Shown: piece after piece, positions 11,553 through 57,072 of the stretch
Position numbering within the stretch: the first letter of the stretch is position 1
Layout: each line of letters starts with the position of its first letter
From: Escherichia coli
Lineage (GTDB): Bacteria; Pseudomonadota; Gammaproteobacteria; Enterobacterales; Enterobacteriaceae
Reading direction: 5' to 3' (one strand)
Assembly (NCBI RefSeq): GCF_011045215.1
Contig: NZ_CP049201.1
Length of the DNA stretch: 64,000 nt
Translations under genes and position numbers: made by a program
Notes under the pieces: generated by a model
The model's database searches: none
The model's input: the letters and a program-made list of their open reading frames with translations, nothing else
What the model was told of the DNA's origin: nothing

Positions 11553-11632
11553 GAGCAAAATTAAATCAGTGCACAAGGGGAGGCATCTGCGGTGATGGAC
11601 CCCCTGAGATGCAGGCTTCACAGGAGAGAGTC

Positions 11633-15049: not shown

Positions 15050-15699
15050 ATAAACCTGTTATCTCCCGGGCTGAACAGATTTTTTATCCCGGCTGGCTGA
15101 TGGTCAGCCAGCTGCGCAGCGGGCAACCGGTTGAGGATGGTAAGGCCCTGTATCGCCGTGCCTGTCAGCTGGTGAAACAGGCGCGTGAAGAGCTGGCCGA
15201 AGCAGGATTCAGTCAGGAAAACAGTGACACCATGTTGTATGCCTTCTGTGCCCTGCTGGACGAGAGTGTGCTGAACCGCGAAAAAACAGATGATGGCTGG
15301 CACACCTGGCAGCAGGACCCGCTGCAGGCTCATTTTTTTGGTACGCTCAATGCCGGTGAAGAGCTCTGGGAGCGTATTCGTGAGCAACTGAAATTACCAG
15401 CGCCGGATGTGGCGGTACTGACATGCCTCTGCCGTACGCTTCAGCTCGGTTTTACCGGTCAGTACCGGTCGCAGGATGATGAGCGTCGCGAAGATGTAAT
15501 ACGCGCACTGACAGCGCGTGTTCCTGCATTTACTTTCGCACAGGATGCGCCGGTGGTGGTGCGTGCACCGGGTTACCGTGCTGGCAGAACGATGTACTGG
15601 TTGTCATGGGTGGCGGGTATTGTGACGCTGGCTGGTCTCTGGTGTGTGCTTTCTTCTGTGCTTGCAGACCAGGTGGCACGGCTTACCGGACAGGGATAA
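15046..15699 (+). CDS. tssL: T6SS membrane-complex protein TssL (DotU-like)
   Basis: ATG overlaps the tssK stop (ATGA); about 217 aa with a single C-terminal TM helix, as in DotU/TssL. Confidence 0.8.
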   Translation: MNKPVISRAEQIFYPGWLMVSQLRSGQPVEDGKALYRRACQLVKQAREELAEAGFSQENSDTMLYAFCALLDESVLNREKTDDGWHTWQQDPLQAHFFGTLNAGEELWERIREQLKLPAPDVAVLTCLCRTLQLGFTGQYRSQDDERREDVIRALTARVPAFTFAQDAPVVVRAPGYRAGRTMYWLSWVAGIVTLAGLWCVLSSVLADQVARLTGQG

Positions 15700-15701
15700 C
15701 C

Positions 15702-17975: not shown

Positions 17976-18097
17976 TTCAGCATCTGTTGGCGGGTGCTGA
18001 AGAAAAAATTCTCAATCCTGAACACAGACCTGATGCGCCTGGGTTACGGCGAAGGGCGGTAGCGTGCCTGACGGTCTCCTGACAGTGAGTGAATAAC

Positions 18098-31900: not shown

Positions 31901-32294
31901 GAAACTGATTTATGTTAATCAGATGCCGGTATGGAAGCGATTTACCTGGCCGGCTGATACGGAAGCACCTGGCGCCAGTTTAAGCTGGGTAAGCACTCAG
32001 GCCGGTACCCGTCAGTATGCAGACCTGCCGGGAAGCTGGGGGCTGATACGTCTGCTTGAGATGGCCCGACGGAAAGCCGCACCGGGCGTTGCCAGTGGCT
32101 GGAGCCTGAGCTGGCAGGCGCAGGACGGTCGTATGCTGAATTACACACTGCGAACTGAAGCGGGGGAAGGGCCGCTTGTATTGCTGAAACTCCGCAATTT
32201 TGTTCTGCCGGAAACGGTTTTCGAACTCTCCGGTACGTCAGCGTTTACAGGCAATGACGAAGATGCCGGGGATTCCGTGGAGGAGACTGACTGA
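28905..32294 (+). CDS. tssM: T6SS membrane-complex protein TssM (IcmF-like)
   Basis: 1129 aa with N-terminal TM helices and large periplasmic region; size and position match IcmF/TssM. Confidence 0.88.
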   Translation: MNKLACLSGRFGRPGIVFIGVAALWWLITRYGAYLGAETRRDQILLLILLSLGLLFVCYLPVMKKYVQELTYRRRARKEQRLPDDEERLAQTPPRYVTVQDIRHTLRRQYGRFWGRKIRILLITGTASEVELLTPGLTEQFWQEEQGTLLLWGGDPSQPENADWLAALRRLRYRPADGIVWVTSGLSETLSAPLTEDALDRVSRAVSSCCERLGWRLPLYVWSLQESPDERGRITQPVGCLLPAECRSDKLKAQLQAMLPGLVTQGIQQICSAPRYYFLLSLAERFRRNIDAVVEPLSVLLRSYRQLLLAGIVFSPATVGGERSVRHRWRMDNRWEALPETVQQLPVRLQPSRTGHNWRRSLTVMAVILMMAQGTGMVVSFLANRSLVAEVQEQIRPVQNQQQSLTERLQALLNLQKSLARLQYREEHEAPWYLRAGMNQNADLLAVVMPLYAQNAHLLLRDAAAAHLEQQLRIFIRLPPDSPQRGKMAKAARDQLRLYLMLAQPQHMESAWFSRTLMREWPQRDGVSAGFWQANGPTLLAYYASGLITHPQWKLTVDEELVSQSRTLLLRHMGTQNSDAMLYQKMLARVAHQFADMRLTDMTGDTDVSRLFFTDEVVPGMFTRQAWEEAVLPAIDTVINERREEMDWVLTDGRQKTPSPVSPEALRQRLKTRYFADFGNAWLNFLNSLQLRRAQTLSDVTEQLTLMADVRQSPLVALMNTLAVQGRTGQPREAVTDSLVKSARNLLSQEKQPVTAQESRLHGPLATTFGPVLALMDNQNNSADMLNLQTYLIRITQVRLRLQQIAGSSDPQAMMQMLAQTVLQGKSVDLTDTRDYGSLAAAGLGQEWYGFGQTVFVRPMEQAWQQVLTPAAESLNTRWRTAVVDGWNNAFSGRYPFKNVSSDASLPLLAKYLNTDTGRIARFLQNNLSGVLRREGNRWVPDTINTRGLTFNPAFLKAINTLSEIADVAFTTGNAGLHFELRPGTAAGVMQTTLITDNQKLIYVNQMPVWKRFTWPADTEAPGASLSWVSTQAGTRQYADLPGSWGLIRLLEMARRKAAPGVASGWSLSWQAQDGRMLNYTLRTEAGEGPLVLLKLRNFVLPETVFELSGTSAFTGNDEDAGDSVEETD

Positions 32295-33892
32295 TGGCTT
32301 CCATTCATTCGCTCCTCAGTGCATGCCAGACGACACCCCGGGATGTGGCTGAACCGGCTCAGGTGCGTATTGTGCTGTGGGATAAATGGCTTGCTCCCGT
32401 GACGCCAGATAATCCCGCAGGTGATGATGCGGGGTACGATGATGATTTTCAGCAGATGCGTGAAGAGGTCAATAAATTCTCCGGAGCCGATGCCGGAATA
32501 GTCAGCCAGCTTGCAGAAAAATTACTGACCACCAGAACCAAAGATATCCGGGTGGCGACCTGGTATATCTGGGCCCGTCTGCGGCAGGATGGTGAAAAAG
32601 GTCTGGCCGACGGTCTGGAGCTGCTGACCGGTTTGTTGCAGCGTTTTGGAGAGCACCTGCATCCACAACGGTCACGGGCCAGGAAGGCGGCGCTGGAGTG
32701 GTTATGCAGCGCCCGCATACTGGACAGTCTGTCTCTGTATCCGGAGGTGGTGAAGGCGGATACCCTGCGCATTGCCGGGGCGCTGTGGCTGGCAGAACAG
32801 ACCTTTACGGATGAGGCTTCCGCCCCGGTGCTGAACGGGTTATATCAGGCACTTGAAAATCGCCTGATGAAGGCCGGTGGTGTTGATGCAGTGGTGCCTC
32901 AGGAGGCTGCCGCGCCGGCACCGACGGTAACATCCGGCAGCGTCACGGCACTATCTGCCATCACCTCCGGACAGGAACTGCTGTCACAGGCTCGTGTTCT
33001 GGCAAAATATCTGCGTGACCAGCCTGAGGGCTGGCTGGCGGCTCATCGGCTGATGAAAAGCGTCCGGCATGACACGCTGCATCAGTTACCGCCGTTATCT
33101 GCTGATGGACGGACCCGTATTGCCCCACCGGGGCCGGACCGGCGTGCGTCACTGAAACGGTTGTATCTGCAGCAGAACTGGTTGTCACTACTTGAGCAGT
33201 GTGACGATATGTTTGCCCGGGGAGCCAGTCATCTGTGGCTGGACCTGCAGTGGTATATTCATCAGGCGCTGTTGCAGACCGGAAAAGAAAATTATGCTGC
33301 CATTATTCAGTATGACCTGAAAGGATTGCTTCTGCGCCTGCCGGGGCTTGAGACACTGGCTTTTAACGACGGCATGCCGTTTGCCGATGACGTGACGCTG
33401 AGCTGGATACAGCAGCAGGTGATGGAGTGTGGTGAACGCTGGGCGGAAGAACTTTCTGTAACGATAACGGCAGCTCCCGGAGATAACGACATTTTATCTC
33501 TTGAGCCGGAAGCCCTGCAGATTGCGGATAATGAAGGAACAGAAGCCGCTTTAAGCTGGTTACAGGCACGTCCCGGTATTCAGTCTGACCGCAGCAACTG
33601 GCTACTGCGCCTGTTGATGGCCCGTGTTGCCGAACAGACTGGAAAAAATGACCTTGCCCTGCATCTGCTTGCGGAGCTGGATGAACGTGCAACCCGGCTG
33701 ACCCTGTCACAATGGGAACCTGAACTGGTATTTGAAGTAAAAGCCCGCCGCCTGAAACTGTTGCGTATGAAGTCCGCAAAAACTGAAAGTGACAGAGTGC
33801 GTCTGCAACCTGATATGGAACATCTTCTTGCCGGGCTTATTGCTATTGATGCTGCCAGAGCTGCTGTGTTGTGCAATCCGGGAAGTTCATGA
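32294..33892 (+). CDS. tssA: T6SS protein TssA (ImpA N-terminal domain)
   Basis: 532 aa; N-terminal VTPDNPAGDDAGYDDDFQQMREEVNK is the ImpA_N signature. Confidence 0.8.
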   Translation: MASIHSLLSACQTTPRDVAEPAQVRIVLWDKWLAPVTPDNPAGDDAGYDDDFQQMREEVNKFSGADAGIVSQLAEKLLTTRTKDIRVATWYIWARLRQDGEKGLADGLELLTGLLQRFGEHLHPQRSRARKAALEWLCSARILDSLSLYPEVVKADTLRIAGALWLAEQTFTDEASAPVLNGLYQALENRLMKAGGVDAVVPQEAAAPAPTVTSGSVTALSAITSGQELLSQARVLAKYLRDQPEGWLAAHRLMKSVRHDTLHQLPPLSADGRTRIAPPGPDRRASLKRLYLQQNWLSLLEQCDDMFARGASHLWLDLQWYIHQALLQTGKENYAAIIQYDLKGLLLRLPGLETLAFNDGMPFADDVTLSWIQQQVMECGERWAEELSVTITAAPGDNDILSLEPEALQIADNEGTEAALSWLQARPGIQSDRSNWLLRLLMARVAEQTGKNDLALHLLAELDERATRLTLSQWEPELVFEVKARRLKLLRMKSAKTESDRVRLQPDMEHLLAGLIAIDAARAAVLCNPGSS

Positions 33893-34025
33893 GATGTCTG
33901 AATTATATTCATGTGTAATCTGATTAATGAAATCCGGCCTGCAGTTCAGTTCGGACGATTGTTTGAAGTATGGTTGAAGTCAGAGCGCGAGTCTCCGGAA
34001 CAGTTAGCTTTATTCTGAGAAGATA

Positions 34026-35789
34026 ATGGACGATTTAACCCTGCGTTATTTTGACGCTGAAATGCGTTATCTGCGTGAAGCCGGAAAGGCGTTTGCACAG
34101 GCTCATCCCGATCGGGCGGCGATGCTGGATCTCGATAAAGCGGGTACGCCTGATCCCTGCGTGGAGCGCCTGTTTGAAGGTTTCGCCTTTTCCATGGGAC
34201 GACTGCGCCAGAAAATCGACGATGATTTGCCGGAGCTTACTGAAAGTCTGGTCAGTATGCTCTGGCCTCATTACCTGCGTACTATCCCGTCCCTGTCGGT
34301 GGTGGCACTGACTCCCCGGTTATCCGTCATGAAAATGGCTGAAACCGTACCAGCCGGACTGGAAGTGACTTCCCGCCCTGTTGGCCCCGGAAATACAGTC
34401 TGTCGTTACCGTACCACCCGGGCCATACCACTGAATCCACTGGCAGTGGAGAAGGTTGTTATGACGACGGAGCCGGACGGGCGTTCAGTGTTGAAAATAG
34501 GTTTTGCCTGCAGTGAACTGGCTGACTGGTCTCAGGTCGATTTGCATCGTCTGAGCCTGTATCTGGCAGCAGAAGCCCCGGTCAGCAGCACCCTTCATCT
34601 GATGATGACAAAGCGTCTGGCTGCGCTGTATCTGAGGCTGCCGGGAAATGATGAGCGGATCCGCATTGACGGATGGTTTTCTCCCGGTGGTTTTGCAGAA
34701 GAAGATCGGCTGTGGCCGAAAGGTGACAGTGCTTTCAGTGGGTATCAGTTATTGCTGGAATATTTCACCTTTCGGGAAAAGTTTATGTTTGTTCATCTGA
34801 ACGGACTGGAGAATGTTTCTCTGCCGGCAGGTATTTCCGGATTTGATCTTGAGGTGGTGCTGAGTCAGCCCTGGCCGGCAGATTTACCTGTGACAGACGA
34901 TGCCCTGTGTCTGCATTGTGTGCCGGTGATTAACCTTTTTACGCTTGAAGCCGATCCACTCATCATCAATGGGCTGGAGAGCGAATACCTGCTGCGCCCG
35001 AAGCGTCTGCAGGATGGGTATACGGAGATATATTCCGTGGATGCGGTGACGGGCTCCGGGCGAACCGGCAGTGCAGAGTACGTGCCTTTTACCAGCTTCC
35101 GTCACCGTGGGGGAATGCTGCGCCATGATGCACCCGAACGTTATTATCATACCCGGGTGAAGCGGGGTGTCACGGGGATGTATGACACATGGCTTATCCT
35201 TGGCGGTCAGCGGTGGGAGGCGGATCGGATGCCGGAGCGGGAAACGCTTTCATTACGTATTACAGGTACCAATGGTCAGCTTCCCCGTCGTGCGTTGCAG
35301 AGTACGCTGCTTGATCGGTGTGAACAGGTACTGCAGACCCCGGTCAGTGTACGTAATCTTTGTAAACCCACGCTACCGGTTTATCCGCCGACAGAAGATC
35401 GTTTTCACTGGCGGGTGATGAGTCATCTGGGGACAGGATTTCTTAACATGCTGAGCAGTGCGGAAGTGCTGCGTGGCACGCTGGCGCTTTATAACTGGCG
35501 GGACGATGAACTTAATCACCGTCGGCTTGATGCCATTCTGGCTGTACAGCATCATCGTATTCAGCGTTTTGAAAAGGGTTTTCTGCTCCGGGGGCTTGAT
35601 GTGGAGGTAACTCTTGATGGCAACGGGTTTGCCGGAGAGGGAGATATTCACCTGTTTGGCGAAATGCTCAACCGTTTCCTGGCCCTGTACGCCGATATGA
35701 ATCAGTTCAATCAGCTCACACTGATTGTTCAGCCTGAAGGAAAATGCATCCGGTGGAAAGAAAATCACAATCCGCGCCTGCCCGGTTAA
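34026..35789 (+). CDS. tssF: T6SS baseplate protein TssF
   Basis: 587 aa; MDDLTLRYFDAEMRYLREAGKAFAQAHPDRAAMLDL start typical of TssF. Confidence 0.85.
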   Translation: MDDLTLRYFDAEMRYLREAGKAFAQAHPDRAAMLDLDKAGTPDPCVERLFEGFAFSMGRLRQKIDDDLPELTESLVSMLWPHYLRTIPSLSVVALTPRLSVMKMAETVPAGLEVTSRPVGPGNTVCRYRTTRAIPLNPLAVEKVVMTTEPDGRSVLKIGFACSELADWSQVDLHRLSLYLAAEAPVSSTLHLMMTKRLAALYLRLPGNDERIRIDGWFSPGGFAEEDRLWPKGDSAFSGYQLLLEYFTFREKFMFVHLNGLENVSLPAGISGFDLEVVLSQPWPADLPVTDDALCLHCVPVINLFTLEADPLIINGLESEYLLRPKRLQDGYTEIYSVDAVTGSGRTGSAEYVPFTSFRHRGGMLRHDAPERYYHTRVKRGVTGMYDTWLILGGQRWEADRMPERETLSLRITGTNGQLPRRALQSTLLDRCEQVLQTPVSVRNLCKPTLPVYPPTEDRFHWRVMSHLGTGFLNMLSSAEVLRGTLALYNWRDDELNHRRLDAILAVQHHRIQRFEKGFLLRGLDVEVTLDGNGFAGEGDIHLFGEMLNRFLALYADMNQFNQLTLIVQPEGKCIRWKENHNPRLPG

Positions 35790-36844: not shown

Positions 36845-37361
36845 GGCTGGTTACGGTCTGATTATTGCGTTGTTTTCCCTGTCGTTATCAGGGTGCGGTC
36901 TGACGCAAAGAGTGGCAGACGGTACGGTATCTGCCACGAAATCCCTGTTTTACCGACAGATAAAAACACTTCACCTGGATATTCGTGCAAGGGAGGCCAT
37001 TAACACCAGTGCTGCCGGTATTCCCCTGTCGGTTGTGGTGCGGATTTATCAGCTTAAAGACAACCGGAATTTTGACAGTGCGGATTATCAGGCGCTTTTT
37101 ACGGGGGACAATGAAATTCTGGCAGGCGATATCATTGCACAGAAAGATGTATGGCTGCAGCCAGGAGGTTCAGTAGCCGTGGATATGCCCCTGGATGATG
37201 CGGCGAAATTTACCGGTGTGGCAGCAATGTTTCTGGAGCCTGACCGGAAGAAAAATACCTGGCGGGTGGTGCTGAGCCGGGATGAGCTTGAGCCGGACAC
37301 GCCCCGTCTTATTGAAGTATCCGGTAACACCCTGACGCTGTTACCGGTGAAGGATAAATAG
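36825..37361 (+). CDS. tssJ: T6SS outer-membrane lipoprotein TssJ
   Basis: 178 aa with lipobox LSLSGCGL; position before tssE. Confidence 0.72.
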   Translation: MAIIAGKAGYGLIIALFSLSLSGCGLTQRVADGTVSATKSLFYRQIKTLHLDIRAREAINTSAAGIPLSVVVRIYQLKDNRNFDSADYQALFTGDNEILAGDIIAQKDVWLQPGGSVAVDMPLDDAAKFTGVAAMFLEPDRKKNTWRVVLSRDELEPDTPRLIEVSGNTLTLLPVKDK

Positions 37362-37363
37362 CG

Positions 37364-37795
37364 ATGCCGCGTCCTTCCCTTTATGAAATTCTCTATGGCA
37401 ATTTCGCTGGCGGGCTGGAGTTAAATCAGGTCGGTGAGGAAGAGCAGGTTATTCTTTCGGTGCTCGATAACATGCAGCGTATTCTGAATACCCGGGCCGG
37501 AAGCCTTAAACATCTGCCGGATTATGGTCTGCCGGATATAACAACCATTCTGCAGGGAATGCCGGGGACGGCGCATCAACTGATGCGCGTGCTTTCAGAT
37601 GTTCTGCTGAAGTATGAGCCACGTATTAAGCGTGTCGACGTGACGATGCAGGAACAGACTCAGCCAGGTGAGTTGCATTATGTCATTGATGCAGAACTTA
37701 AAGATGCAGGGCTGGTTCGCTACGGAACAACATTTATGCCGGAGGGCAGGGTGTTGTTGCGCCATCTGAAACAGCAGCGGTACGTTCAGACGTGA
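37364..37795 (+). CDS. tssE: T6SS baseplate protein TssE (gp25-like)
   Basis: 143 aa; SLYEILYGNF...ILSVLDNMQRILNTRAGS... matches the gp25/TssE family pattern. Confidence 0.8.
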   Translation: MPRPSLYEILYGNFAGGLELNQVGEEEQVILSVLDNMQRILNTRAGSLKHLPDYGLPDITTILQGMPGTAHQLMRVLSDVLLKYEPRIKRVDVTMQEQTQPGELHYVIDAELKDAGLVRYGTTFMPEGRVLLRHLKQQRYVQT

Positions 37796-37951
37796 GCCGG
37801 AGCAGGGAGGGCAAAACAGAAATTAATAAACAGTGATGGATATATGTCAGGTGTGAATGTGACATTATACTGGCTTATGACAACACTGGCTGAATGTTTC
37901 ATCATCCTGATAACTCTGGCATATCAACAATAACAATGTATGAGTTTTTAA

Positions 37952-38353
37952 ATGAAGAAAATTATCTGTTTTCTGTTCGTGGGGCTTTTATTTTCGGTTC
38001 AGGCAGATGCTGCGCGGGGAAGAAAACCCTGCTCGGGTGCTAAAGGTGGTATTTCACACTGCACGTCAGACGGACGTTTTGTCTGCAATGACGGAAGTCT
38101 GAGTCAGTCGAAGCGCTTTTGTTCCGGTTATGGCGTGGCACCCGACAAACGTCAGGTGGAATCACCGGTCACCACGAAGCCGGTTCAGAAGAAAAAATCA
38201 GCGGCTGTCCGGAAGGTGTCACAACCGTCGGTGGCCGGGAAAAATGAGGTTGTACCGGTCACTGAACCCCGTAAACCCACCTGTGCGCCGCTTTATATGG
38301 CCAGCAAACCTGGATTTACACATCTGCCCATTTGTTCCGGTAATCAGTATTAA
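37952..38353 (+). CDS. Secreted Cys-containing small protein (signal peptide)
   Basis: 133 aa; signal peptide MKKIICFLFVGLLFSVQADA; mature part has Cys-containing Gly-rich N-terminal segment and Lys-rich middle. Confidence 0.5.
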   Translation: MKKIICFLFVGLLFSVQADAARGRKPCSGAKGGISHCTSDGRFVCNDGSLSQSKRFCSGYGVAPDKRQVESPVTTKPVQKKKSAAVRKVSQPSVAGKNEVVPVTEPRKPTCAPLYMASKPGFTHLPICSGNQY

Positions 38354-38508
38354 TCTGACACTGAAATAGCAGAGAAATCTGTGCTCAGCCTGCAGTTAAT
38401 TCTGTACTGGTGGGCATCATAAAGCCGGACAGCCTTCCGGGTATAAATATTTCCGGAGGGCGTTAATCAAAGATATTCAGTTACTGAGAAGGAAAATAAA
38501 GGAAAGTC

Positions 38509-39752
38509 ATGGCAGGAAGAAAAAAAGATGATAATGCAGCGGGATTTGTTCTGATTTTAGTTTGCGTTATTCTCTGGGGGATTTATGTGGCGGTCAGGGC
38601 GCTGATAAATCTTAATGAGCGCTTTATTGATGCAGTATCGAATCCGGCAGGTATTATTGGTTTGTTTTTGGGTTTGCTTACTGTATTTGCAATTTTACTT
38701 CGTTTTTTTATTTACCGGAGACTCAGAAAGAAAACAGCAGCCTTTGAGCAGGCCGTTTCAGAGCTGGTTCAGAGAGAACGGGGTTTTAATGAAACTGTCA
38801 ATGCCGCGATAGCCCGGGGAATACGACAGGAAAAGGAGCAACTAGCCAGACGTCGTGAGGATTTCATACCGCCAGACAGAAGGCCAGCCGTGCAATGCAA
38901 CGGATTGTTGATTCCGCTTGGAAATTTAAGGCGAAGACTCTGCTGGCTGGTGTAACGATTAATAACTGGCAAAGCAAATATGACCAGCTTCGTAAGGAAA
39001 GAGAGGCTTACGCTGCTGTCAGTGAGAAAATTGCCTTTCTTAACCTGGAAGATAATTCTGACTGGGAGAGTGTCAGGCAACAGTTTCTGGACAAAGTGGC
39101 GTTGCTGGAAAAAGCGCAGGAAGAAAAGGAATATCAGGCAGAGCTTAAGCGTCAGATGCGTGAAGAAAAAGAGCGTCAGGATGAACTTGACCGGCGCCAG
39201 CGGGAAGCGGAAGAGGAAGAGCGGCGTCTTGCCGAGCAGCAGAAACTGATTGAAGAGGCGCTGCGTGCCGCAGAAGGGGCTCACAGGGAGGAGCTGGAGA
39301 AACAACGCCTGGCGCTGGAACAGAAAATTCAGGAAGCGCATGCGCAGTACGAACGTGCTAAATCCATGGCTCAGCTTACGAAACAGGGGCATGTTTATAT
39401 CATTTCGAATATTGGTTCGTTTGGTGAGGATGTCTTTAAAATTGGCATGACCCGACGGCTGGAACCCATGGACAGGGTCAAAGAGTTAAGTGGTGCTTCT
39501 GTTCCGTTTGATTTTGATGTTCACGCCATGATTTCCTGTGATGATGCGCCTGCGCTGGAAAAAACACTTCATGACAGTCTGGAAAAATACCGCATTAACA
39601 GGATTAACCTGCGTAAAGAATTTTTCCGCGTGAAGCTTGAGAAAATCATTAATGAAGTGGAGCGTCACCACGGGCAGGTGGAATATGTGGCTGACCCGGC
39701 GGCGCTGCAGTACCTGCAGAGTCTGGAGTGCGCGGAAAATGAAGCTGCCTGA
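38509..39752 (+). pseudogene. Membrane-anchored coiled-coil protein with C-terminal T5orf172/GIY-YIG-like domain (DUF4041-type), frameshifted as given
   Basis: ORF 38509..38955 (two TM helices then helical region) and ORF 38895..39752 (coiled coil then GHVYIISNIGSFGEDVFKIGMTRRLEPMDRVKEL...FDFDVHAMI) are adjacent, overlap, and lie in different frames; both frames read as natural protein up to the 38860..38900 interval. Confidence 0.6.
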
Positions 39753-39944
39753 CAATCAGTGTTCTGATTTTATTCCGGCCGGATATAACAGAAGGGATAT
39801 CTGCACATATCCTGCAGCATGGTTCACGGTATTCCGGTCATGTTAATGATTCTGTTTTTTATTTCTGAATAAAACGACACCCACGATATAACGTCGTGGG
39901 TGTCGGTGGTGATTATTTTTTTGTTCACAGATTAAGGTGCGTTT

Positions 39945-41732
<1,788 letters not shown>

Positions 41733-41797
41733 TACCGGATTATTTCTTTATTCCGGGCTTTCACCATACTGTTATTATCAGGTTTATTTAATTCGCC

Positions 41798-42103
41798 ATG
41801 AACCCGTTATTTAACGATATTCAGATGCGTCTTTTTTATCTGAACCACTCTCCGTACTCCTGGCACTGGAATGTCAGATTCAGACCTCAGGAAGCCGTAT
41901 ATATTGGCAACGATACCTGTCATATCACCATTACCTGTAATCAGTCAGGTTTTCATTTAACCCGGGACGGACAACGGCTGTTCACTGAGCGTTATATCAG
42001 AAACCTTAATGAGCTGTTACCGGTTCTGAAACGGCGGTGGGATGTGACACCGGCAATCATCCGTGCAGTGGAATACCTTTCCCGGGTCCCGGTATCACAC
42101 TGA
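41798..42103 (+). CDS. Hypothetical protein (101 aa)
   Basis: ORF only; no recognisable motif. Confidence 0.3.
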   Translation: MNPLFNDIQMRLFYLNHSPYSWHWNVRFRPQEAVYIGNDTCHITITCNQSGFHLTRDGQRLFTERYIRNLNELLPVLKRRWDVTPAIIRAVEYLSRVPVSH

Positions 42104-42157
42104 CATTCTTTCCGTAACTGTTAATCATGATTTAATACAGCAACACTGAATCTGCCG

Positions 42158-43522
42158 ATGACTTCTGAAGTGAAACTGAAAACCGGTGGTGACCCCCGGT
42201 CATTACCGGATTATACTGCCCTACGTGATGAAATCAGCAAACTGACCCACCCGGCACGCCCGGATGTGGACTGGCGTTATGTGGAAACACTCTGCCTGCG
42301 TCTGTATGAACACAATGGCGTGGAATTACAGACGGCATCCTGGTACACCATCGCCCGGATGCATACAGCAGGGTTAAGTGGCCTGAATGAAGGGCTGGCT
42401 CTGATTGTGGCGCTGACCCGGCATCACTGGTCAGTGATGTGGCCGCTGAATACCCACGCCCGGCTGGAAATTATTACCGGTCTGTTCAACCGTCTGCAAA
42501 AAACGCTCCGGGCCATGCCACCGGATAACCGTGACAACCTGCCTCAGCTGTATCAGACCGAAACATTCCTGAAGGTACTGAGTGACATATTTATCCGACA
42601 TGAGCTGAAGCAAAACAGCCGGCTGGTGTTACTGGAAAACATGGTGAAGGGATATATCATTCGTCTGGAGAATCAGCCTTTACAGGGGGATGATTCGTCC
42701 CCGGTAACGCTTCCTGCTCAGGCACTCCGGTCTGATGCACCGGATGTGCAGGAACATCAGACCCTGCCGCACTCCCGTCTGGTGTATATTGTTTCTGAAA
42801 CAAAAGCAGAACCCTCCCCCTCCCTTCAAAAGTCTTCACCCACGTTTCTGAAACCGTTTGTGGCTGGTGTCTGTGCGGCATTGCTGGCTGTCAGCATGGC
42901 CATTCCGGGATGGCAGTTTCTGACACAGCCATCACCGGCGGAGCAGCAACTCAGGGCGCTGCTGACCCCCCCACCGGATGTGCTTTCAGCAGACCAGATG
43001 ACACAGCTCAGCAGAATACCCTCACTGTTAAATCATGTGTCAGAGTGGATACCCCTTTCCGGTCAGCAGATAACGCGACTGACAGAACTACCGCCGGCAT
43101 ACAACCTGCAACGCAGTGCGCAGCTGCTGCAGCAACTGATGGTGCTTTTTCCCGATAATCCCCGTGTCCAGGAAATGGTGGATAACTGGCAGAAGAGTGT
43201 AATGAGCCGTGCGCTCCCGGAAGAGGCGATGACGGGCTGGAACGAAGGTATGACCCGCTTACAGCAGCTGGCTGAGCGCCTGAACCGTCTGGATGAACAG
43301 CGGGGAAAATACATAACGGTCAGTGAACTGAAAACGGAGGTGTTTGGCATCATGCAGGCTTTTAACCGGCATATCCCGGCAGAAGAGCAGTTACGTCGCT
43401 ATGGCGAAGCCCGCAACCAGAATGGCAGTGAACAGCAGCAAAAACAGGCTGAAATGGCGCTGAATCAGTTGATTAACCGTTATCAGATGGAACACACAGG
43501 CAATCAGGAGGGGCAGCCATAA
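42158..43522 (+). CDS. ImpA_N-domain protein (TssA-related, TagA/VasL-like) with internal TM helix
   Basis: 454 aa; N-terminal GGDPRSLPDYTALRDEISKL...PDVDWRYVETLCLRLYEHNGVELQTASWYTIARMHTAGLSGLNEGL matches the ImpA-related N-terminal domain; hydrophobic segment FVAGVCAALLAVSMAIPGW mid-protein. Confidence 0.65.
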   Translation: MTSEVKLKTGGDPRSLPDYTALRDEISKLTHPARPDVDWRYVETLCLRLYEHNGVELQTASWYTIARMHTAGLSGLNEGLALIVALTRHHWSVMWPLNTHARLEIITGLFNRLQKTLRAMPPDNRDNLPQLYQTETFLKVLSDIFIRHELKQNSRLVLLENMVKGYIIRLENQPLQGDDSSPVTLPAQALRSDAPDVQEHQTLPHSRLVYIVSETKAEPSPSLQKSSPTFLKPFVAGVCAALLAVSMAIPGWQFLTQPSPAEQQLRALLTPPPDVLSADQMTQLSRIPSLLNHVSEWIPLSGQQITRLTELPPAYNLQRSAQLLQQLMVLFPDNPRVQEMVDNWQKSVMSRALPEEAMTGWNEGMTRLQQLAERLNRLDEQRGKYITVSELKTEVFGIMQAFNRHIPAEEQLRRYGEARNQNGSEQQQKQAEMALNQLINRYQMEHTGNQEGQP

Positions 43523-43846
43523 TGGCTGATTAGATAGGGTAATGTAAAATAATGCAACAATAACGTTTACACAATAAGGTGTAAGCTGAAATTAACTCGT
43601 TCGTGGAATAACCTAATGAGTAAGGTTCTGCTACTTTGAGTTGGATAAGTTATATAGAACAGCAGTCCTGATAGTCAGAAAGAGTTTTTTCTGGGGTGTA
43701 TTTTTATAGGGTGTTAATCTGGTATTTAATTAAAAGACGGAGTTATTTATACTGACATATCAAATAAATAATTTTTAACGACTTTTCTATTTGGCTGATT
43801 GTTTTGCGTTCTTTTTATAAGGTGTTTTATTTTTAAAGGTTTTTTG

Positions 43847-45662
43847 ATGAGATTACATAGTCTTAAAATAAAAGGATTTAAACGTATCCAAACTGCAAGA
43901 GATAATATTTGGTGATACCACGTTTCTCATTGGTGCTAATAATGCCGGTAAAAGTTCTGTTCTGAAGGCCGTTGAATGGCTGCTTTCAGATAAAAAGAAG
44001 ATGGATATTGACTTTTTTTATTGTGAATCTGATGAATCACGTGAAAATAAAATAGCAACTGAGTCAATTGTACTCGAGGCTGAATTCAGAAATGTACCGG
44101 AAGAGGCATTGCAATGGAGAGGTTTTAGGGGGAGGATATTTGAATATAATGCTGGAAATAGTGGGGAAACGGGAAAGTCTCTGATTTACAGGAAAACATA
44201 TGAACCGGGGAATGATGTTGTTATTGAATTGAAATCTTTTTCAAGAAAATTGAATACACGATTTGAAACCGCAGTCAGAGCATCTGACTTGGTAGAAGCT
44301 GGTGCTGATGCCGAAATCATCACTGAGTATTTTCCAGATCAAGCTAAAAGATTTAATGCAGCTGACAAAGAAAAATTAAAACTCATTGATGAATTATGGG
44401 ATATTTCTGATGATGAAGAAGTTTGGGATAAAAACCCGGGGGGAATTGCAGGTGTTGTGTTATCCCGATTACCTGCTTTTCTATTAATACCAGCAGAATC
44501 AGCTTCTCATGAAATTGACACAAAAGCGGGAGCTTTGCAGAAAACGCTGAATGAACTATTCAAAGATGTTCGTGGCAATTCAGAAAATTATAGAAAGGCC
44601 CAGGAGTCTCTGAATGCGCTTGCGAAGGAATTAGATCCTGCAGATGAAACGTCAGAATTTGGTGTGATGATGGGAGAACTTAACAGTGTATTAAGCGGAG
44701 TTTTTCCAGAGTCAAAGATATATGCTACGGCTGATTTATCTGATCCTGATAATGTTCTCCTACCTTCATTTTCGGTTGAAATGTCGAGTAACATTAAAAC
44801 ATGTGTATCGAATCAAGGAACCGGAATGATTCGAGCAGCTGTATTTGGATTGTTGAGATTTCGGCAGCAATGGCTGAGAAAAAAAGGTAAGGATGATGCT
44901 GCTACCAGAAGTCTTATTATTGGATTTGAAGAACCAGAAATTTATTTACACCCTAGTGCAGCAAACCAGATGAGAGATTTGATTTATGAATTATCAGATG
45001 GACAGTCACAAATAATAGCGACAACACATTCACCTTATTTGATTGATTTGTCGAGAAAACCCCGACAGGTACTTAACCGATTCCATTATGATAATTCACA
45101 TACGACAGTCTACCCGCTCTCAGTGACAGAGAAATTTCTGGCCTTGCAGGATAATGATAAAGATCAGATAAAAATGCTGATTAAGCTGGATGATCATGTA
45201 TCAAGGATCTTTTTTACCCGAAAAGTTGTTGTTGTCGAGGGAGATACAGAGGAAGTCATTATCAAAGAAGCTATCCGCAGAATGCCAAAAGCAATGCGAA
45301 ATAAGTTGCTTGCATCAACAGAGCTGGTTAAAGCACGTGGCAAGGCTGCGATTATCGGCCTGGTGAAGTATCTTAGCGCGCTGGATGTTGATTTTTTTGT
45401 TATCCATGATCGTGATGGCGGAACTCCCGGTGCGGAGATCTTTAATGCGCCGATTGCTGCTGCTGTTGGGGATGCCAGCAAAGTTATCATGCTGGAAGAG
45501 TGTATTGAGGATCTGCTGGGGTACCCAGCTCCAAGTGGTGAAAAACCGTTTAAGGCGTATCAGGAAGCACAGCGCTGGGGAGATAACTGGAATGACGTGC
45601 CTGAACCATTAAGGAGAATACTGACTAGAGCTTTTTCCCCATTTATCGATTTGGCTGAATGA
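43847..45662 (+). pseudogene. OLD-family ATP-dependent endonuclease (ABC-type ATPase plus Toprim), N-terminal frameshift as given
   Basis: ATG at 43847 encodes MRLHSLKIKGFKRIQTARDNI then TGA at 43913; shifting frame at 43908..43913 gives FGDTTFLIGANNAGKSSVLKAVEWLL (Walker A) continuous with the 44001..45662 ORF; downstream TTHSPYLIDLS and Toprim-like VVVVEGDTEE...FFVIHDRDGG. Confidence 0.75.
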
Positions 45663-46077
45663 GCAAAAGGGAAAAACTCTGATAAGTAGAGAGTTGAAGA
45701 TGAGCGCTTGGTGCATTGCCAGCACTCTTTTGATTGAAGATCTTTATTTCAGTGAAAGTGGTGCCTGGTTTGCCTTGCCTAAACGTATCATAAAGTCGGC
45801 ACACCATACCTGATGCTGCTATGCGATGTTCCTGCTGGATGTGATGTCGGAAAGAAAGGCGGAATATTACTGCAATAAGGTAGCAGTCCATATCAGACGC
45901 GGGCCTTTCATGATGAACAGGAGAATAACTTGAGTTGCCGGGAATTGCCGCGGCCATACGACATAATCGGGCCAGAGGAAAACACCAGATGGCCTCAATA
46001 TCTGACATTGTCAGAGACCTTTCGCGGCTCGGCTGGACGGATGAACGCATTGGCACTGAGCGGGGCAAGTGCTAAGG

Positions 46078-46135
46078 CTGAAACAGATTAGCGGGCTGAC
46101 GGGCCTGTTTCAGGAAGAGGATTTCAGCCCGGCAT
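46078..46135 (+). repeat. Diverged copy of the gene tail seen at 1..74 (26-codon fragment)
   Basis: CTGAAACAGATTAGCGGGCTGACGG-CTGTTTCAGGAAGA--ATTTCAG shared with 3..53; reads ...LKQISGLTGLFQEEDFSPA then TAG; in-frame TGA just upstream, so not an intact gene. Confidence 0.5.
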
Positions 46136-46181
46136 AGACGCTTCGCTGATACTGTTATTGTTATTTCAGTGAGTTGATGTT

Positions 46182-46511
46182 TTGAGCAGGAAAAAGAGTA
46201 CCCTGGAAGTTGTGGAAGACAAGGTTGCACAGAAACTGGAGGCTGCAGGTTACTGGCGCAGAGCTTCTGCCCGCTGGTTATTTGTTATGGGCAATTTTGA
46301 ATGTACAGAAGCACAAGGGGAGTGGTTGTTGTTACGCAGGAATTATTGCCTGACGCAGATATCGTCCCCGCCGCTACCTGAAAAGCTGGATATCAGCGAA
46401 GTGGTAAAAGCTGCAGATGCCACGCTGAGGCGAATGGGGATTGCCAGCCCGTCCGGAGAGGTATTCAGAAAAGGTATATTGACCTGTAGATATTCAGATA
46501 ACAGGTATTGA
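46182..46511 (+). CDS. Small regulator-like protein, possibly PerC-family
   Basis: 109 aa; KLEAAGYWRRASARWLFVM...RRNYCL resembles the PerC-family pattern (from recall; low certainty). Confidence 0.4.
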   Translation: MSRKKSTLEVVEDKVAQKLEAAGYWRRASARWLFVMGNFECTEAQGEWLLLRRNYCLTQISSPPLPEKLDISEVVKAADATLRRMGIASPSGEVFRKGILTCRYSDNRY

Positions 46512-49588: not shown

Positions 49589-51235
49589 TCAGTGGTAGTA
49601 GCCAGGACCACGCAGGTTTTCATGCTCTGAAGCATATGCCGGATGTTGTTCGCCCTGGCGGGATAACGGAAGCTCAACGTTATCCCGATGATGACGCAGC
49701 AGATTGTCGATAAAGCGTCTGTCCGGGGCGTTATAGTGCAGGGCAACGTAACAGGCCTTTTCCAGCCGTTCCGGGCCGTATTTTTTCTGAAGTGCCAGCA
49801 GACCCAGGACTGCACGGTAAGCCAGCTCCGGATGGGGTTTGGCTTTCAGCATGGATTCAACCACCCGGCCTGTGGACGGACCTGTACGGTTTCCCTGCTC
49901 GATAAGGCGTTCCGGTGTCCATGTCCCATGCCGCCGGTGGCGTTCTGGCATGTGAAGCGGATTGGTTGTGTGTTTATATTCATGTGTGCTGCGCGGATGT
50001 TGCGCCACACACTGCCCCTTGTGCCAGAGTTGTACCACCGACTGCCCCGCCTTCAGTGACAGACGCTGACCGACCAGTTCGTGTGGAACGGAGTACCAGT
50101 GACGGGCATATTCAACGTGATAGTCAGGGCCAACCTTCACGGCTTTGTATTCCGTGTATTCATAAGGTGCCAGAGGCAGCGGAGAGAGTGCTGGCGCATC
50201 CAGTATGCGGAAGCGTTCTGCACGGGTTTGATTGCCGTACCCCTTCATTGGCCGGTTATTCATGTCTGTCAGTAACTCCCGAAGGCGCGCATTCAGCGCC
50301 CTGAGCGTGTGGAAGGTTTCATTACGGATGCGGGCAAGAAGCCATCGTTCGACGATGAGGACGCCGTTTTCTGCTTTTGGTTTATCTTTAGGTTTGCGTG
50401 GTCGGGCCGGGATAATAACCGTGCCATAGTGCTCAGCCAGCGCCTGATAACTGTCGTTGATGACAGGCTCATAGCGATCGGCTTTTTTCACTGCGCTTCT
50501 GAGGTTATCGGGGATGAGCAGCTTCGGTACGCCGCCCAGGAAGGTCAGGCAACGGCTGTGGGCATTTAACCATGACATCATGTCCTGACCTTCGCACGCT
50601 TCAACATAGGTATAGTTGGACGCCCCCATTACAGCCACGAAGATTGCCACGCGGCGTATCTCTCCGGTGTCCGGATTAATAACAGGGACCGTAGGACCAC
50701 AGAAGTCGATAAAGAGCTTTTCGCCAGCACGATGCTCCTGTCGCATGGAGAGGCGTCGCGTTTTTTTCCACTTCCGGTAGCAACGGCAGAAGTGTGAGTA
50801 TCCCATCGCTTTGTCACCCGCCTGTGCCTTGTATTCCATCCACAACAGTTGGCGCGTCACGCCAGGTTTTCTCATTTCCGTATCGAAGTACAGCATGTCA
50901 GGCATAACAAGCTCCGACGCAGAGGTGTCTTTGGGCGGGTAAATGAGTTTCTCCAGCGTGTCATGGGATATATCAGCAGGTAATGGCCATGACAGAGAAG
51001 AGGCTTTGAAGCGTGCAAGAACCTCAAAAACGGTTGAGGCGCTGATGTGTAATGTCAGCCCGATACAACGGTTAGTCAGCTTCTGGTCGAACTTGAGCTG
51101 AAGGATCTTAAAACAGGTTTCCATAGTGCTCCTGGATTTTCTCTTTCTGGACATTGCCGTCTCCATTGGTTTAAACACGGCAATGAAGACTGTGGCGAAA
51201 AGAGTTAATTCCCGGAGTGACTGGCAGGATGCCAA
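49589..51235 (-). CDS. istA: IS21 transposase IstA
   Basis: 548-aa ORF upstream of and adjacent to istB; start codon uncertain within the first 40 codons. Confidence 0.85.
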   Translation of the reverse strand: MASCQSLRELTLFATVFIAVFKPMETAMSRKRKSRSTMETCFKILQLKFDQKLTNRCIGLTLHISASTVFEVLARFKASSLSWPLPADISHDTLEKLIYPPKDTSASELVMPDMLYFDTEMRKPGVTRQLLWMEYKAQAGDKAMGYSHFCRCYRKWKKTRRLSMRQEHRAGEKLFIDFCGPTVPVINPDTGEIRRVAIFVAVMGASNYTYVEACEGQDMMSWLNAHSRCLTFLGGVPKLLIPDNLRSAVKKADRYEPVINDSYQALAEHYGTVIIPARPRKPKDKPKAENGVLIVERWLLARIRNETFHTLRALNARLRELLTDMNNRPMKGYGNQTRAERFRILDAPALSPLPLAPYEYTEYKAVKVGPDYHVEYARHWYSVPHELVGQRLSLKAGQSVVQLWHKGQCVAQHPRSTHEYKHTTNPLHMPERHRRHGTWTPERLIEQGNRTGPSTGRVVESMLKAKPHPELAYRAVLGLLALQKKYGPERLEKACYVALHYNAPDRRFIDNLLRHHRDNVELPLSRQGEQHPAYASEHENLRGPGYYH

Positions 51236-51327
51236 TCAATGATCGGAAGCGTGCCAAATCGTGATCGATTGTGATGCCAAACTGTGATCGGAGATGGATG
51301 CCAAATCATGATCGATTCGAATGCCAA

Positions 51328-52817
51328 CATACCCTTACCCACAAGTTTTCTGGGCTATTTCTATGGCATTAATTGACAGCATTAATTGTGTTAATCCTGA
51401 CCATATAGTCTTAGGGCCTGGAGGCGAATCATTTTTTCTTGCCAGATATCCTCCTAATCTTGCAAGCATTAAAACCGCCGTTCTTATATTCGGTATGTTT
51501 TCAGGTGGAGGCGTATTCTCTACCAATATCCAGAGATACTCATATTCTTTCTTTTCGAAAATTAAATCACAGGGTTCCTCCGGAACCATTTTATACAATG
51601 AGCTAAGATAAAGTATTCTCCATGAGATTATAAGGTATAAGGCCAGACAGTTCCTTGTGCGTTCAAATGTCTCAAGTTGTAATTTCTCAACCTGACATCC
51701 GCTTTTTAATACCTTAAAGAAAACTTCAATCTGCCAGCGTAATAAATACCATTGAATAAGCTGTGCGGGTTCCGTCAGCTTTTCTGGAGGTACACTACTC
51801 ATTAGCCACCATACTAATGGCTGGACACTTTCTGGAGCATTTATTTCCTTTGCAAGTAATACAGTTACCGTTACCGGAGAACAACGTAACTTTCCTCTTC
51901 GACCGGTGGGTGGATGTAGCGTCAACCTTGCTAAGCGTAGCTCCTGCTGGACTTTGCGGGAAGGTTGTCCTCGTCCTTCCGGAAGGGTAAACTCAATTAT
52001 CTGCTGTGGCAAAATCTGCATCATTTTTTCATTCAGGAGTAATGAGTCTCTTTTTCCTGATGAATTCAGTATAGCCCGGTTAATGCTCTTCATTCTTACG
52101 AGCCAGTCAGCCTTTATCCCACTTTCATTTTCTGCACTCTCAAAGAGGTCGTAAATATCACCTTCACGGTCTGAAACAGAAATTATCTGGGTATCAGGAC
52201 AGGACCTAGCCAGTTCTGTTGCTTTTTTATATCCTTCTATCCACCGTCCTGTTTCTTTCTCACTGATATGTTTCCTGTGAAGTGAATCATTAGTTATTTC
52301 TTTACGACTTTGTTTCTGAGTTTTGAGTTCTTTTCTGAACCATTGATAATCATCATAAACCCCTAAGCAAATACCTGAATCACTTATAACCAATTGAGGG
52401 TGAATAAACAAATCTCGCTCATTTTCATGTCGTCTGGGACCGACGCCCTGTTTCTTTTTTTGACCAGAATAATTTAGTTCAGTCGTATCCTGTAAAACCA
52501 GAGCCCGTTTAAACTGTTTAGTCCTTTCGATGATATTTTTCTTATGGGGAGCCATGATTTTATCGGCTGAAATTTTATCACTGGAAAAGCAACGATAAGC
52601 AGCTTTTGTCTCACTCCAGGTACGGCAGGATACGGGAATACTTTCCTTTGGTGAACGGCTAAGCACACTGAGAACGTGCTTTATTCGCTTTTCGAGCCTG
52701 ATATCACCAACATTCAGAGATTCCAGCTCCTTAATAACCCAGTTTTCCATAGTTCCTCTAAATTATGGTTAATTTATCAACAGAATAACATCACTCGGAT
52801 TTATGGGTAAGGATATG
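51328..52817 (-). mobile_element. IS4-family (IS50-like) insertion sequence, copy B
   Basis: Inverted duplicate of 440..1929 with the same 14-bp terminal repeats and the same 9-bp flanking repeat (GAATGCCAA on this strand at 51319..51327 and 52818..52826). Confidence 0.75.
51335..52750 (-). CDS. IS4-family transposase (identical to 507..1922)
   Basis: Identical 471-aa translation to the copy at 507..1922. Confidence 0.85.
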   Translation of the reverse strand: MENWVIKELESLNVGDIRLEKRIKHVLSVLSRSPKESIPVSCRTWSETKAAYRCFSSDKISADKIMAPHKKNIIERTKQFKRALVLQDTTELNYSGQKKKQGVGPRRHENERDLFIHPQLVISDSGICLGVYDDYQWFRKELKTQKQSRKEITNDSLHRKHISEKETGRWIEGYKKATELARSCPDTQIISVSDREGDIYDLFESAENESGIKADWLVRMKSINRAILNSSGKRDSLLLNEKMMQILPQQIIEFTLPEGRGQPSRKVQQELRLARLTLHPPTGRRGKLRCSPVTVTVLLAKEINAPESVQPLVWWLMSSVPPEKLTEPAQLIQWYLLRWQIEVFFKVLKSGCQVEKLQLETFERTRNCLALYLIISWRILYLSSLYKMVPEEPCDLIFEKKEYEYLWILVENTPPPENIPNIRTAVLMLARLGGYLARKNDSPPGPKTIWSGLTQLMLSINAIEIAQKTCG

Positions 52818-53658
52818 GAATGCCAAACCGTGATCGATTCAGATGCCATTTTGCAGTTATACACTATTGAGTATTATATTGTTATGAAAATATCTGTACT
52901 TATGGAATATTTAATTCTGATGATGGGGCTCTGGTTTGTTGTATGGTTAATTACGGACTGGTTACCTCATATCTGACGGAAAGTGGTATCAGTGTGTATT
53001 CGCATTGACCGGACATCGACATATAACGAATTACGTTCCGGACAAAACTCTCCTGCAGGAAAGGGTAACATTGTATTTTAAACATATTATTCAACCAGTC
53101 ATAAGCATAAACCGACCGCCGTATGTAGCCATTAAGCCAGTATTGGTAACGAAGATACCCACCTTTTCAAAAAGGAAGTGGATAAAAGATAACGAAAATG
53201 CGAAGAGTTGATTAATACATTGAAACAAAATTCATTAATGATGAACTTGGAGAAAAGCTCCATCAAAATACGACACGACCTGTCGTAATTTGTGTTAGCC
53301 AGGAAAGAATATCTACTACTCACTAAAATGATTTAGTGCTGAAAATATTTACAAGCCAATAAATTGACTGGTATTACGGAGTAACGCCCAGGCTATGTTA
53401 ACGAACCCGCTGTTTTATTGGCTCAAAAAACATATCCCAGAGATGTTCAGCCATACCCTCGTTAGTGAGCAAGGTATCCCCTTAGTAGCCAGGGCTGAAG
53501 ATGCCCATTGATGGGCGAAAACCAAGGATCTGGCCGTTAGAACAGTTATGTCGTTAAACACATCACCACCATATGCCATCCGGTTCACTTCGTCGGCCAA
53601 ATTAGTGTGATATTCTTTCCAGAAATGCTGTTGTATCCACGACATAAGGCGATGATTG

Positions 53659-56600: not shown

Positions 56601-57072
56601 GCAGGTTCAGGGGGCACTGGAGCCGCTGTTCCAGCAAAATCCGGTGCTGAAGAAAATCCGCAACGGCGAGCCAGTCACGCAAAACGAGCTGGATGAACTG
56701 GCGAAGCTGGTGCTGATCCAGAACCCCAACGTTGATATCCGGGCACTGAAAGAGTTCTATCCGCAGGCAACCGCCAGCCTGGATAAACTTTTGCGTACCA
56801 TCATCGGGATGGACAGCGACGCGGTGGAAGTGCGCTTTGCTCAGTTCGCCGCTGATAACAGTCTGACCAGCCAACAACTGCGCTTCCTGTCATTGCTGAA
56901 AAACCACATTCGCGATTACGGCACCATTGAAATGCGGCAGCTCTTTGAACAGCCTTTTACGCATATCCACAACGAAGGCGTTACCGGTGTGTTCCCTGAT
57001 ATAGAGCAGATCGCCCGCCTGCAAAAGATAGTCGAAGAGCTGGGTGTTGTGACCGACGTAGCGACGGTATAA
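53659..57072 (+). pseudogene. hsdR: Type I restriction enzyme R subunit HsdR, interrupted by an in-frame TAG at 55615..55617
   Basis: ORFs 53656..55617 and 55720..57072 are in the same frame and the codons between them read on as HsdR (VIDNYDPRAEQLIDDFKGLDE...); helicase motifs QATGTGKT (Walker A), DESH, FWQMIGRGTRL present; likely a CAG to TAG change. Confidence 0.8.

Follow-up and report, generated by a model that had tools for sequence, protein, structure and literature searches.

What gene occupies positions 42,158 to 43,522 of Escherichia coli contig NZ_CP049201.1 (RefSeq assembly GCF_011045215.1), and why does it lie more than 4 kb from the cluster of type VI secretion system (T6SS) genes that precedes it? 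The question was examined in a stretch of 64,000 nucleotides of this contig, called the window here, and all positions are those of the window. A first-pass annotation made from the letters alone had tentatively taken the gene for an ImpA_N/VasL-like T6SS gene displaced by defence-like genes, an interpretation that proved essentially right. Our analysis indicates that this open reading frame (ORF) is the tagA gene belonging to a T6SS-1 of the E. coli (Sci-1) type, that by orthology it encodes a sheath stopper, that it is probably expressed by read-through and that a three-gene cassette sits in the slot between tssE and tagA; we put the probability of this reading at about 0.92.

Identity and integrity of tagA

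Positions 42,158–43,522 on the plus strand form an unbroken ORF of 454 codons with an ATG start. Pfam searches of the 454-residue product detected an ImpA_N domain (PF06812) at residues 8–109 (42,179–42,484, plus strand; E = 1.4e-17; 64.3 bits, cutoff 26.9) and an all-helical VasL domain (PF12486) at residues 302–443 (43,061–43,486, plus strand; E = 7.9e-38; 130.2 bits, cutoff 27.3), both far above the gathering cutoffs, and the ImpA-related N-terminus named in the first-pass annotation was thereby recovered. A hydrophobic helix at residues ~229–255 (42,842–42,922, plus strand) follows a disordered linker (residues 172–228) and peaks at residues 231–249, where the Kyte–Doolittle 19-residue mean is 2.0. 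Of the 54 aligned homologues, 52 have a hydrophobic stretch in the corresponding place, with a sequence that is not conserved. Together with the VasL domain, this helix agrees with the mid-sequence transmembrane helix that had been likened to those of VasL-type proteins.

An AlphaFold2 model built from the 54-sequence alignment (mean predicted local distance difference test score, pLDDT, 86) showed a helical N-domain at residues 17–171 (to about nucleotide 42,670; pLDDT >90), a disordered linker of low pLDDT at residues 172–231, a lone helix at residues 232–255 and a helical C-domain at residues 260–451, in which the VasL part has a pLDDT of about 90–96. The sequence-profile search against the PDB matched the N-domains of the TssA structures 6rju and 6hs5, and the top Foldseek match of the model in the PDB was likewise the TssA N-domain 6hs5 (E = 1.2e-3). 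No solved homologue of the VasL domain was found in the PDB by profile or Foldseek search, the remaining Foldseek matches being weak TPR-like helical-repeat noise.

The product is 88% identical in amino acid sequence, over its full length (453 residues aligned), to an intact 455-residue ORF of enteroaggregative E. coli (EAEC) strain 042 (NC_017626.1; L002:34070-35437). In that genome the genes run tssE, a YdcA-like gene, a GIY-YIG gene, a gene annotated as '3'-5' exonuclease' (NERD/UvrD), a hypothetical gene and the intact 455-codon ORF, and the order tssE, YdcA-like gene, GIY-YIG gene, NERD helicase gene, 101-aa ORF and tagA is the same in the window, 042, 55989, E70 and E203449. In a comparison with 5,426 complete E. 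coli genomes, DNA identity over the tssE–tagA region was about 96%; the complete genomes that matched best were ~96–98% identical, and the top protein match, at 96%, was an E. coli protein. The TagA of EAEC 042/17-2 (Sci-1 T6SS) likewise consists of ImpA_N, linker, hydrophobic helix and VasL (455 residues against 454 here), the flanking genes correspond, including the four between tssE and tagA, and the TssA partner is 99% identical. Because ImpA_N and VasL occur with a conserved hydrophobic helix, and because of the 88% identity and the synteny with EAEC 042, sequence and gene order identify the gene as orthologous to EAEC tagA, which encodes an accessory protein of the T6SS. TagA and its 'displaced' arrangement are therefore already known and not special to the window, since both are those of the EAEC reference strain in which TagA was characterized.

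The ImpA_N domain is common to this protein and TssA, its best NCBIfam matches are TssA models, and its closest solved structures are TssA N-domains, so the gene might be taken for a second TssA (cap/chaperone) paralogue. This is hardly credible. The TssA equivalog TIGR03362 gave only 85.7 bits against a cutoff of 230.1, with just the N-terminal part aligned (residues 9–196), and Pfam found no VasJ domain, the VasL domain and the hydrophobic helix standing in its place; the TssA-paralogue reading is refuted at the domain level. In addition, a bona fide long TssA is already encoded at 32,294–33,892 (plus strand). Its product carries ImpA_N and T6SS_VasJ (Pfam, E = 6.3e-73), scores 359 bits with TIGR03362 against a cutoff of 230, and is 99% identical to EAEC TssA, which makes it the cap protein and cognate partner of TagA. 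Long-form TssA (class A; EC042_4540) differs from TagA in its C-terminal VasJ oligomerization domain, in having no membrane helix and in being a core, essential cap/chaperone. Of the 'cap or accessory gene' proposed in the first-pass annotation, the accessory role stands and the cap does not, the cap being TssA.

Published work describes TagA proteins as carrying ImpA_N and VasL domains together with a hydrophobic or transmembrane region, and reports that loss of TagA leads to excessive polymerization, bending and breaking of the sheath (PMC6745524). TagA and TssM jointly recruit TssA to the envelope, and termination of elongation as well as non-canonical contractions require TagA (PMC6450956). 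About 12% of the antibacterial activity is left in a tagA mutant (PMC6730261), and long TssA proteins are in most cases accompanied by a TagA anchor (PMC7896307). By analogy with the published EAEC orthologue, the ImpA_N domain of TagA would face the cytoplasm, the central hydrophobic helix would hold the protein at the inner membrane, and binding to the TssA cap would stop polymerization of the sheath and clamp it in an extended state, ready to fire. The window TagA, a class B TssA-like protein, would thus be a T6SS-1 sheath stopper and anchor at the distal end, its function being assigned by orthology. The primary paper on EAEC TagA is that of Santin et al. (Nat Microbiol, 2018), as cited in PMC6745524 and PMC6450956.

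The TagA (VasL, VCA0121) of Vibrio cholerae is also a class B protein in which ImpA_N is followed by a hydrophobic region, and the Pfam VasL family covers both proteins. It is membrane-localized, found at the distal sheath end, and limits over-polymerization (PMC6745524). However, with about 19% identity to E. coli TagA it is a distant family member and not an orthologue, and its deletion has a negligible effect on killing (PMC6745524). TagB and TagJ, the partners of short TssA in Pseudomonas putida and P. aeruginosa, resemble TagA as accessory proteins that stabilize the extended sheath via TssA, but are unrelated proteins of ~30 kDa that act at the baseplate rather than at the distal end (PMC7896307).

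A gene cut off from its operon by an insertion could also be a decaying remnant that is unused by the T6SS. Several observations fit such a view: among 1,507 E. coli genomes in which some tagA sequence occurs, only 436 cover at least 80% of the gene, strains with a deleted T6SS core have a premature stop in tagA (at codon 147 in L004, for example), RefSeq annotates the gene as pseudogene pieces, and in the window the defence genes on either side of tagA both carry frameshifts. Nevertheless, we regard decay as very improbable here. The T6SS core and TssA are intact in the window, the identically placed EAEC gene is functional (PMC6745524; PMC6450956; PMC6730261), and the ratio of nonsynonymous to synonymous substitution rates (dN/dS) of tagA against 042 is 0.27 overall and 0.16–0.17 in the ImpA_N and VasL domains, indicating purifying selection. 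All seven invariant family residues of the 54-sequence alignment are kept in the window TagA. The fragmented annotation itself is an artefact of the Prokaryotic Genome Annotation Pipeline (PGAP), which splits tagA into three 'incomplete' pseudogene pieces (ImpA_N, POTRA and VasL) in 042, 55989, E70, E203449 and GPEC484-624, whereas the ORF is unbroken at 454–458 codons in these five strains, as it is here.

A side observation concerns the label of the middle piece. A derivative of O157:H7 strain 86-24 carries a 348-residue ORF annotated as 'POTRA domain-containing protein' (L088:5122-6168) that ends in the tagA segment of nucleotides 658–791; it lies in the same island (DUF4222 ... ibrAB, perC), without a T6SS. 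This ORF appears to be a deletion-born chimera that seeds misannotation of tagA elsewhere, the middle fragment being labelled 'POTRA' because the 3' end of the chimeric ORF equals nucleotides 658–791 of tagA. Separately, a 2.2-kb contig labelled as a Collinsella sp. metagenome-assembled genome (MAG; L008, JAIJJM010000548.1) encodes the 101-aa ORF and tagA with 91–95% amino acid identity to E. coli, and almost certainly comes from E. coli, having been mis-binned into a MAG of an actinobacterium.

The interval between tssE and tagA

The gene tssE (37,364–37,795, plus strand), the last core gene of T6SS-1, usually stands directly upstream of tagA in other Enterobacterales; its product matches GPW_gp25 in Pfam (E = 8e-16). 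From the end of tssE to the start of tagA there are 4,362 nt, as the first-pass annotation had it with 4.4 kb. It had also counted three unrelated genes in between; there are four, seen as five ORFs as one of them is frameshifted.

The first gene encodes a YdcA-like small protein of 133 residues (37,952–38,353, plus strand). Its NCBIfam matches (PRK10040/YdcA) are below threshold, an orthologue carries the precomputed Pfam label YdcA, and in other genera, too, the gene immediately precedes the GIY-YIG gene (L027, L028, L034, L062, L065 and L073). The second (38,509–39,752, plus strand) is the orthologue of EC042_4547 and codes for a predicted GIY-YIG/T5orf172 membrane nuclease of the PD-lambda-1/SNIPE-like kind. 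It is disrupted here: alignment with 042 showed a 1-bp deletion (a missing A) near 38,860 that splits it into ORFs at 38,509–38,955 and 38,895–39,752. Pfam assigned T5orf172/MUG113, and the intact 042 copy matched PD-Lambda-1 in PADLOC with E = 5e-88. PD-lambda-1 is the same system as SNIPE, whose membrane-bound nuclease cleaves phage DNA while it is being injected and has been shown experimentally to be anti-phage (PMC13190303). SNIPE combines a transmembrane segment at the N-terminus, DUF4041 in the middle and a GIY-YIG nuclease at the C-terminus; the protein here has the GIY-YIG part and a hydrophobic N-terminus that may be a membrane segment. The PADLOC profile has ~490 positions against 414 residues, its C-terminal two thirds matching and its N-terminal third remaining unaligned. 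Pfam found no DUF4041 in the protein, and its hydrophobic N-terminus gave only a weak holin-like match.

The third gene (39,945–41,732, plus strand), the orthologue of EC042_4548, codes for a NERD nuclease with a UvrD-type superfamily 1 helicase. Pfam detected NERD, UvrD-helicase and UvrD_C, and PADLOC matched its candidate C3a187 'NERD+UvrD' (E = 2.5e-141), making it a defence candidate in the cassette. Few other genera have this helicase in the tssE–tagA slot (L028, L038 and L085). The fourth is the 101-aa ORF (41,798–42,103, plus strand), the immediate upstream neighbour of tagA conserved in E. coli, for which no match was obtained in Pfam, NCBIfam or PADLOC. It is present in every E. coli locus examined, including one without the cassette, and was detected in none of the loci outside E. 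coli; its dN/dS against 042 is 0.04, indicating strong purifying selection. The 101-aa ORF goes with tagA in E. coli and not with the insertion.

The arrangement in related genomes was assessed by an alignment-driven scan with one genome per species, which yielded 80 loci, 79 of them from Enterobacterales other than E. coli, onto which the window proteins were mapped by tblastn. The results showed that T6SS core genes lie in the flanks of 76 of the 80 loci and that 73 have a same-strand tssE upstream of tagA. The orthologues are consistently linked to T6SS loci, and, given the strong ImpA_N match as well, neither of the two refuting outcomes named with the first-pass annotation was observed. 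The gap between the two genes is 120 bp or less in 32 loci, 172–419 bp in nine, 560–790 bp in 21 and 1.1–4.2 kb in 11, and no tssE was detected upstream of tagA in the other seven. In 13 loci, spread over scattered genera, what directly precedes tagA are homologues of the intervening genes, in varying combinations. The slot holds the YdcA-like and GIY-YIG genes in Salmonella enterica arizonae (L034), Pluralibacter (L027) and Huaxiibacter (L073), among others; these together with the helicase in L028 and L038; the helicase alone in Cedecea neteri (L085); and fragments only in L035, L048 and L067. Most gaps of 560–790 bp are filled by a conserved 156-aa ORF.

An empty site was found within E. 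coli itself, in strain GPEC484-624 (L089), where 64 bp separate tssE from the 101-aa ORF and an intact tagA comes next. Among the complete E. coli genomes, 37 have a contiguous empty junction of tssE, 101-aa ORF and tagA, and 106 have a filled one. The same three-gene cassette is present in EAEC 042 and is missing from most orthologous loci. The guanine-plus-cytosine (GC) content is 0.45–0.50 in the cassette, 0.52–0.54 in tagA and 0.51–0.58 in the core T6SS genes. Because tssE and tagA adjoin in 32 loci, an empty E. coli site exists, the cassette has a lower GC content and its genes match PADLOC models, an insertion of three of the four intervening genes between tssE and tagA is well supported by sequence comparison. 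The three-gene cassette (YdcA-like protein, PD-lambda-1/SNIPE-like GIY-YIG nuclease and NERD/UvrD helicase) is what puts tagA 4.4 kb from tssE. The earlier idea of displacement by a later insertion of defence genes is thus supported for these three genes and fails for the 101-aa ORF, which stays with tagA. When the empty site of L089 was aligned with both window junctions, no convincing direct repeats or conserved ends were seen at the cassette boundaries, and no integrase or transposase is present inside the cassette.

The intervening genes could instead be genuine T6SS accessory components that form one 'accessory operon' with tagA, with nothing displaced. A 2025 EAEC preprint names EC042_4547 and EC042_4548 as accessory genes of a co-transcribed 'T6SS accessory gene operon' and reports lowered sheath assembly upon mutation of an element called ops2; moreover, the genes from tssE to tagA are all co-oriented with short gaps, and the cassette recurs beside tagA in several genera. 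We nonetheless consider this explanation unlikely. A drop in tagA expression can by itself account for the ops2 phenotype, and in the window the T6SS genes are unbroken but the GIY-YIG gene carries a frameshift. Two of the cassette genes strongly match defence models, in one case that of an experimentally shown anti-phage nuclease. The cassette has a lower GC content than tagA and the core genes, and it is missing from the majority of orthologous loci as well as from 37 E. coli genomes in which tssE, the 101-aa ORF and tagA have stayed together. Insertion of a cassette of foreign genes remains the reading we prefer.

The 156-aa ORF deserves a note of its own. It lies between tssE and tagA in many Enterobacterales other than E. 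coli (L014:9474-9944, L028:5797-6267 and ~20 other loci), has a mean column identity of 71% among 20 members, belongs to no Pfam family and does not occur in E. coli; it may represent a T6SS accessory gene not described before. The possibility that the E. coli 101-aa ORF is a diverged form of it was rejected (hhalign probability 0.2%).

Expression of tagA and points of doubt

The co-oriented genes from tssE to tagA are separated by gaps of 54–192 bp. The EAEC preprint of 2025 describes two RfaH ops elements, ops1 between hcp and clpV and a weaker ops2 between EC042_4547 and EC042_4548; a reporter placed between EC042_4548 and EC042_4549 drops in ops1, ops2 and rfaH mutants, and fewer sheaths are assembled in the ops2 mutant. 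In the window, the exact RfaH ops consensus GGCGGTAGCGTG is found between hcp and clpV at 18,055–18,066 (plus strand), the position described for EAEC ops1, and is the only ops match with zero mismatches. Because of the EAEC reporter data and this exact ops1 consensus, the main source of tagA expression is probably read-through that comes from the T6SS operon and crosses the inserted genes, which RfaH loaded at ops1 would help. Promoter and terminator scans of 37,300–46,200 gave counts no higher than those of shuffled sequences, and no claim is made about a dedicated tagA promoter.

Several points weigh against the overall reading. As for expression, GGTAGNNT occurs once on the plus strand of the 042 tssE–tagA interval (L002:31920) and not at all in the window interval. 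The EAEC ops2-like sequence GGTAGCTT has its equivalent at 40,007–40,014 (plus strand), which reads GGTGGCTT, so that the GGTAG core of 042 is GGTGG here; alignment showed the same A-to-G change in L006, E70 and E203449. We infer that this site is the ops2 of the preprint, and with the core substituted tagA expression could be lower. Between the GIY-YIG and helicase genes, at 39,875–39,905, a perfect 12-bp GC-rich hairpin with T-runs on both sides resembles a bidirectional terminator and could end some tssE–tagA transcripts. No clear Shine–Dalgarno sequence was seen upstream of the tagA ATG.

As for the protein, the window TagA differs from the characterized EAEC protein at 12% of residues, and function is assigned to this allele by orthology. 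The differences are distributed as a mosaic: in the segments of residues 121–228 and 421–454, the strongly diverged linker region and C-terminal tail, the synonymous divergence (dS) from 042 is 0.55–2.2, as against 0.07–0.15 elsewhere, as in the flanking genes. This points to allelic recombination in linker and tail rather than decay, and the mosaic allele is still counted among the doubts. The hydrophobic helix is a predicted membrane-association segment, and the sequence is compatible with either a cytoplasmic or a periplasmic VasL domain. Finally, the locus tag of the EAEC protein is in question. EAEC TssA is EC042_4540 (PMC6745524). By counting, the tagA-orthologous ORF of 042 is the tenth gene after it, at the position of EC042_4550. 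This is presumably the TagA locus tag, as gene counting suggests. A literature search for 'EC042_4550' returned no paper, and neither 'EC042' nor '4550' occurs in PMC6450956.

Surroundings of the locus and significance

The window carries a complete core gene set of the E. coli-type T6SS-1 (Sci-1-type). It includes tssB, starting at 11,609, followed by tssC, tssK and tssL, then tagL with an OmpA domain (15,606–17,432) and tssM at 28,905; hcp, clpV, vgrG, a class-3 lipase effector gene, tssF, tssG and tssJ complete the list together with tssA and tssE. At 33,892–34,026, a 693-nt gene that is present between tssA and tssF in EAEC 042 and 55989 is absent, and in E70 and E203449 it is reduced to an annotated 117-nt remnant. 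The cluster is bracketed by a perfect inverted repeat of 1,943 nt (100% complementary; 400–2,342 and 50,915–52,857), each arm of which encodes a 471-residue transposase of the Tn5/IS4 type. Between the arms lie 48.6 kb that hold the entire T6SS-1 cluster and tagA, along with the defence genes and a copy of IS21, an architecture like that of a composite transposon.

The content of 43,523–46,200, between tagA and the ibrAB/perC genes, varies among E. coli. An OLD nuclease gene follows tagA in the window, E70 and L006. Strains 042 and 55989 have a pair of hypothetical genes there, and E203449 and GPEC484-624 a type II Zorya system; the region just 3' of tagA looks like a second variable defence slot. 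Compared with intact orthologues, the OLD-family gene of the window (43,847–45,662; PADLOC Old, 1.7e-50) has an extra A near 43,897, 50 nt after its start. The single-base indels in the GIY-YIG and OLD genes could be real pseudogene lesions or assembly errors. Further downstream, a type I restriction R subunit is split into 53,656–55,617 (DUF4145, HSDR_N and ResIII) and 55,720–57,072 (EcoEI_R_C), which may be another frameshift; it stands upstream of hsdM (57,136) and hsdS (58,767), which are followed by a gene for a DEAD/ResIII helicase of 1,093 residues.

Three consequences can be drawn. Automated surveys will undercount TagA, since PGAP fragments intact ORFs, that of the reference strain 042 included. 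EC042_4547 and EC042_4548 look like inserted phage-defence genes, which bears on how polar effects and ops2 mutants are read; the only paper found to mention these genes terms them T6SS 'accessory genes', and in the searchable literature we found neither a description of the 'accessory' genes as defence-type insertions in the tssE–tagA slot nor a link between PD-lambda-1 and a T6SS locus. The slot as a recurrent defence insertion site in a T6SS operon is a modest side finding. More tentatively, and with somewhat less than an even chance of being correct, the tssE–tagA junction may be a recurrent integration slot of Enterobacterales for a small anti-phage cassette that is co-transcribed inside an RfaH-dependent T6SS operon. 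If so, anti-phage and antibacterial weapons would share one transcript, tagA expression would depend on read-through of foreign genes, and the locus would be a simple example from nature in which two kinds of defence are regulated together.

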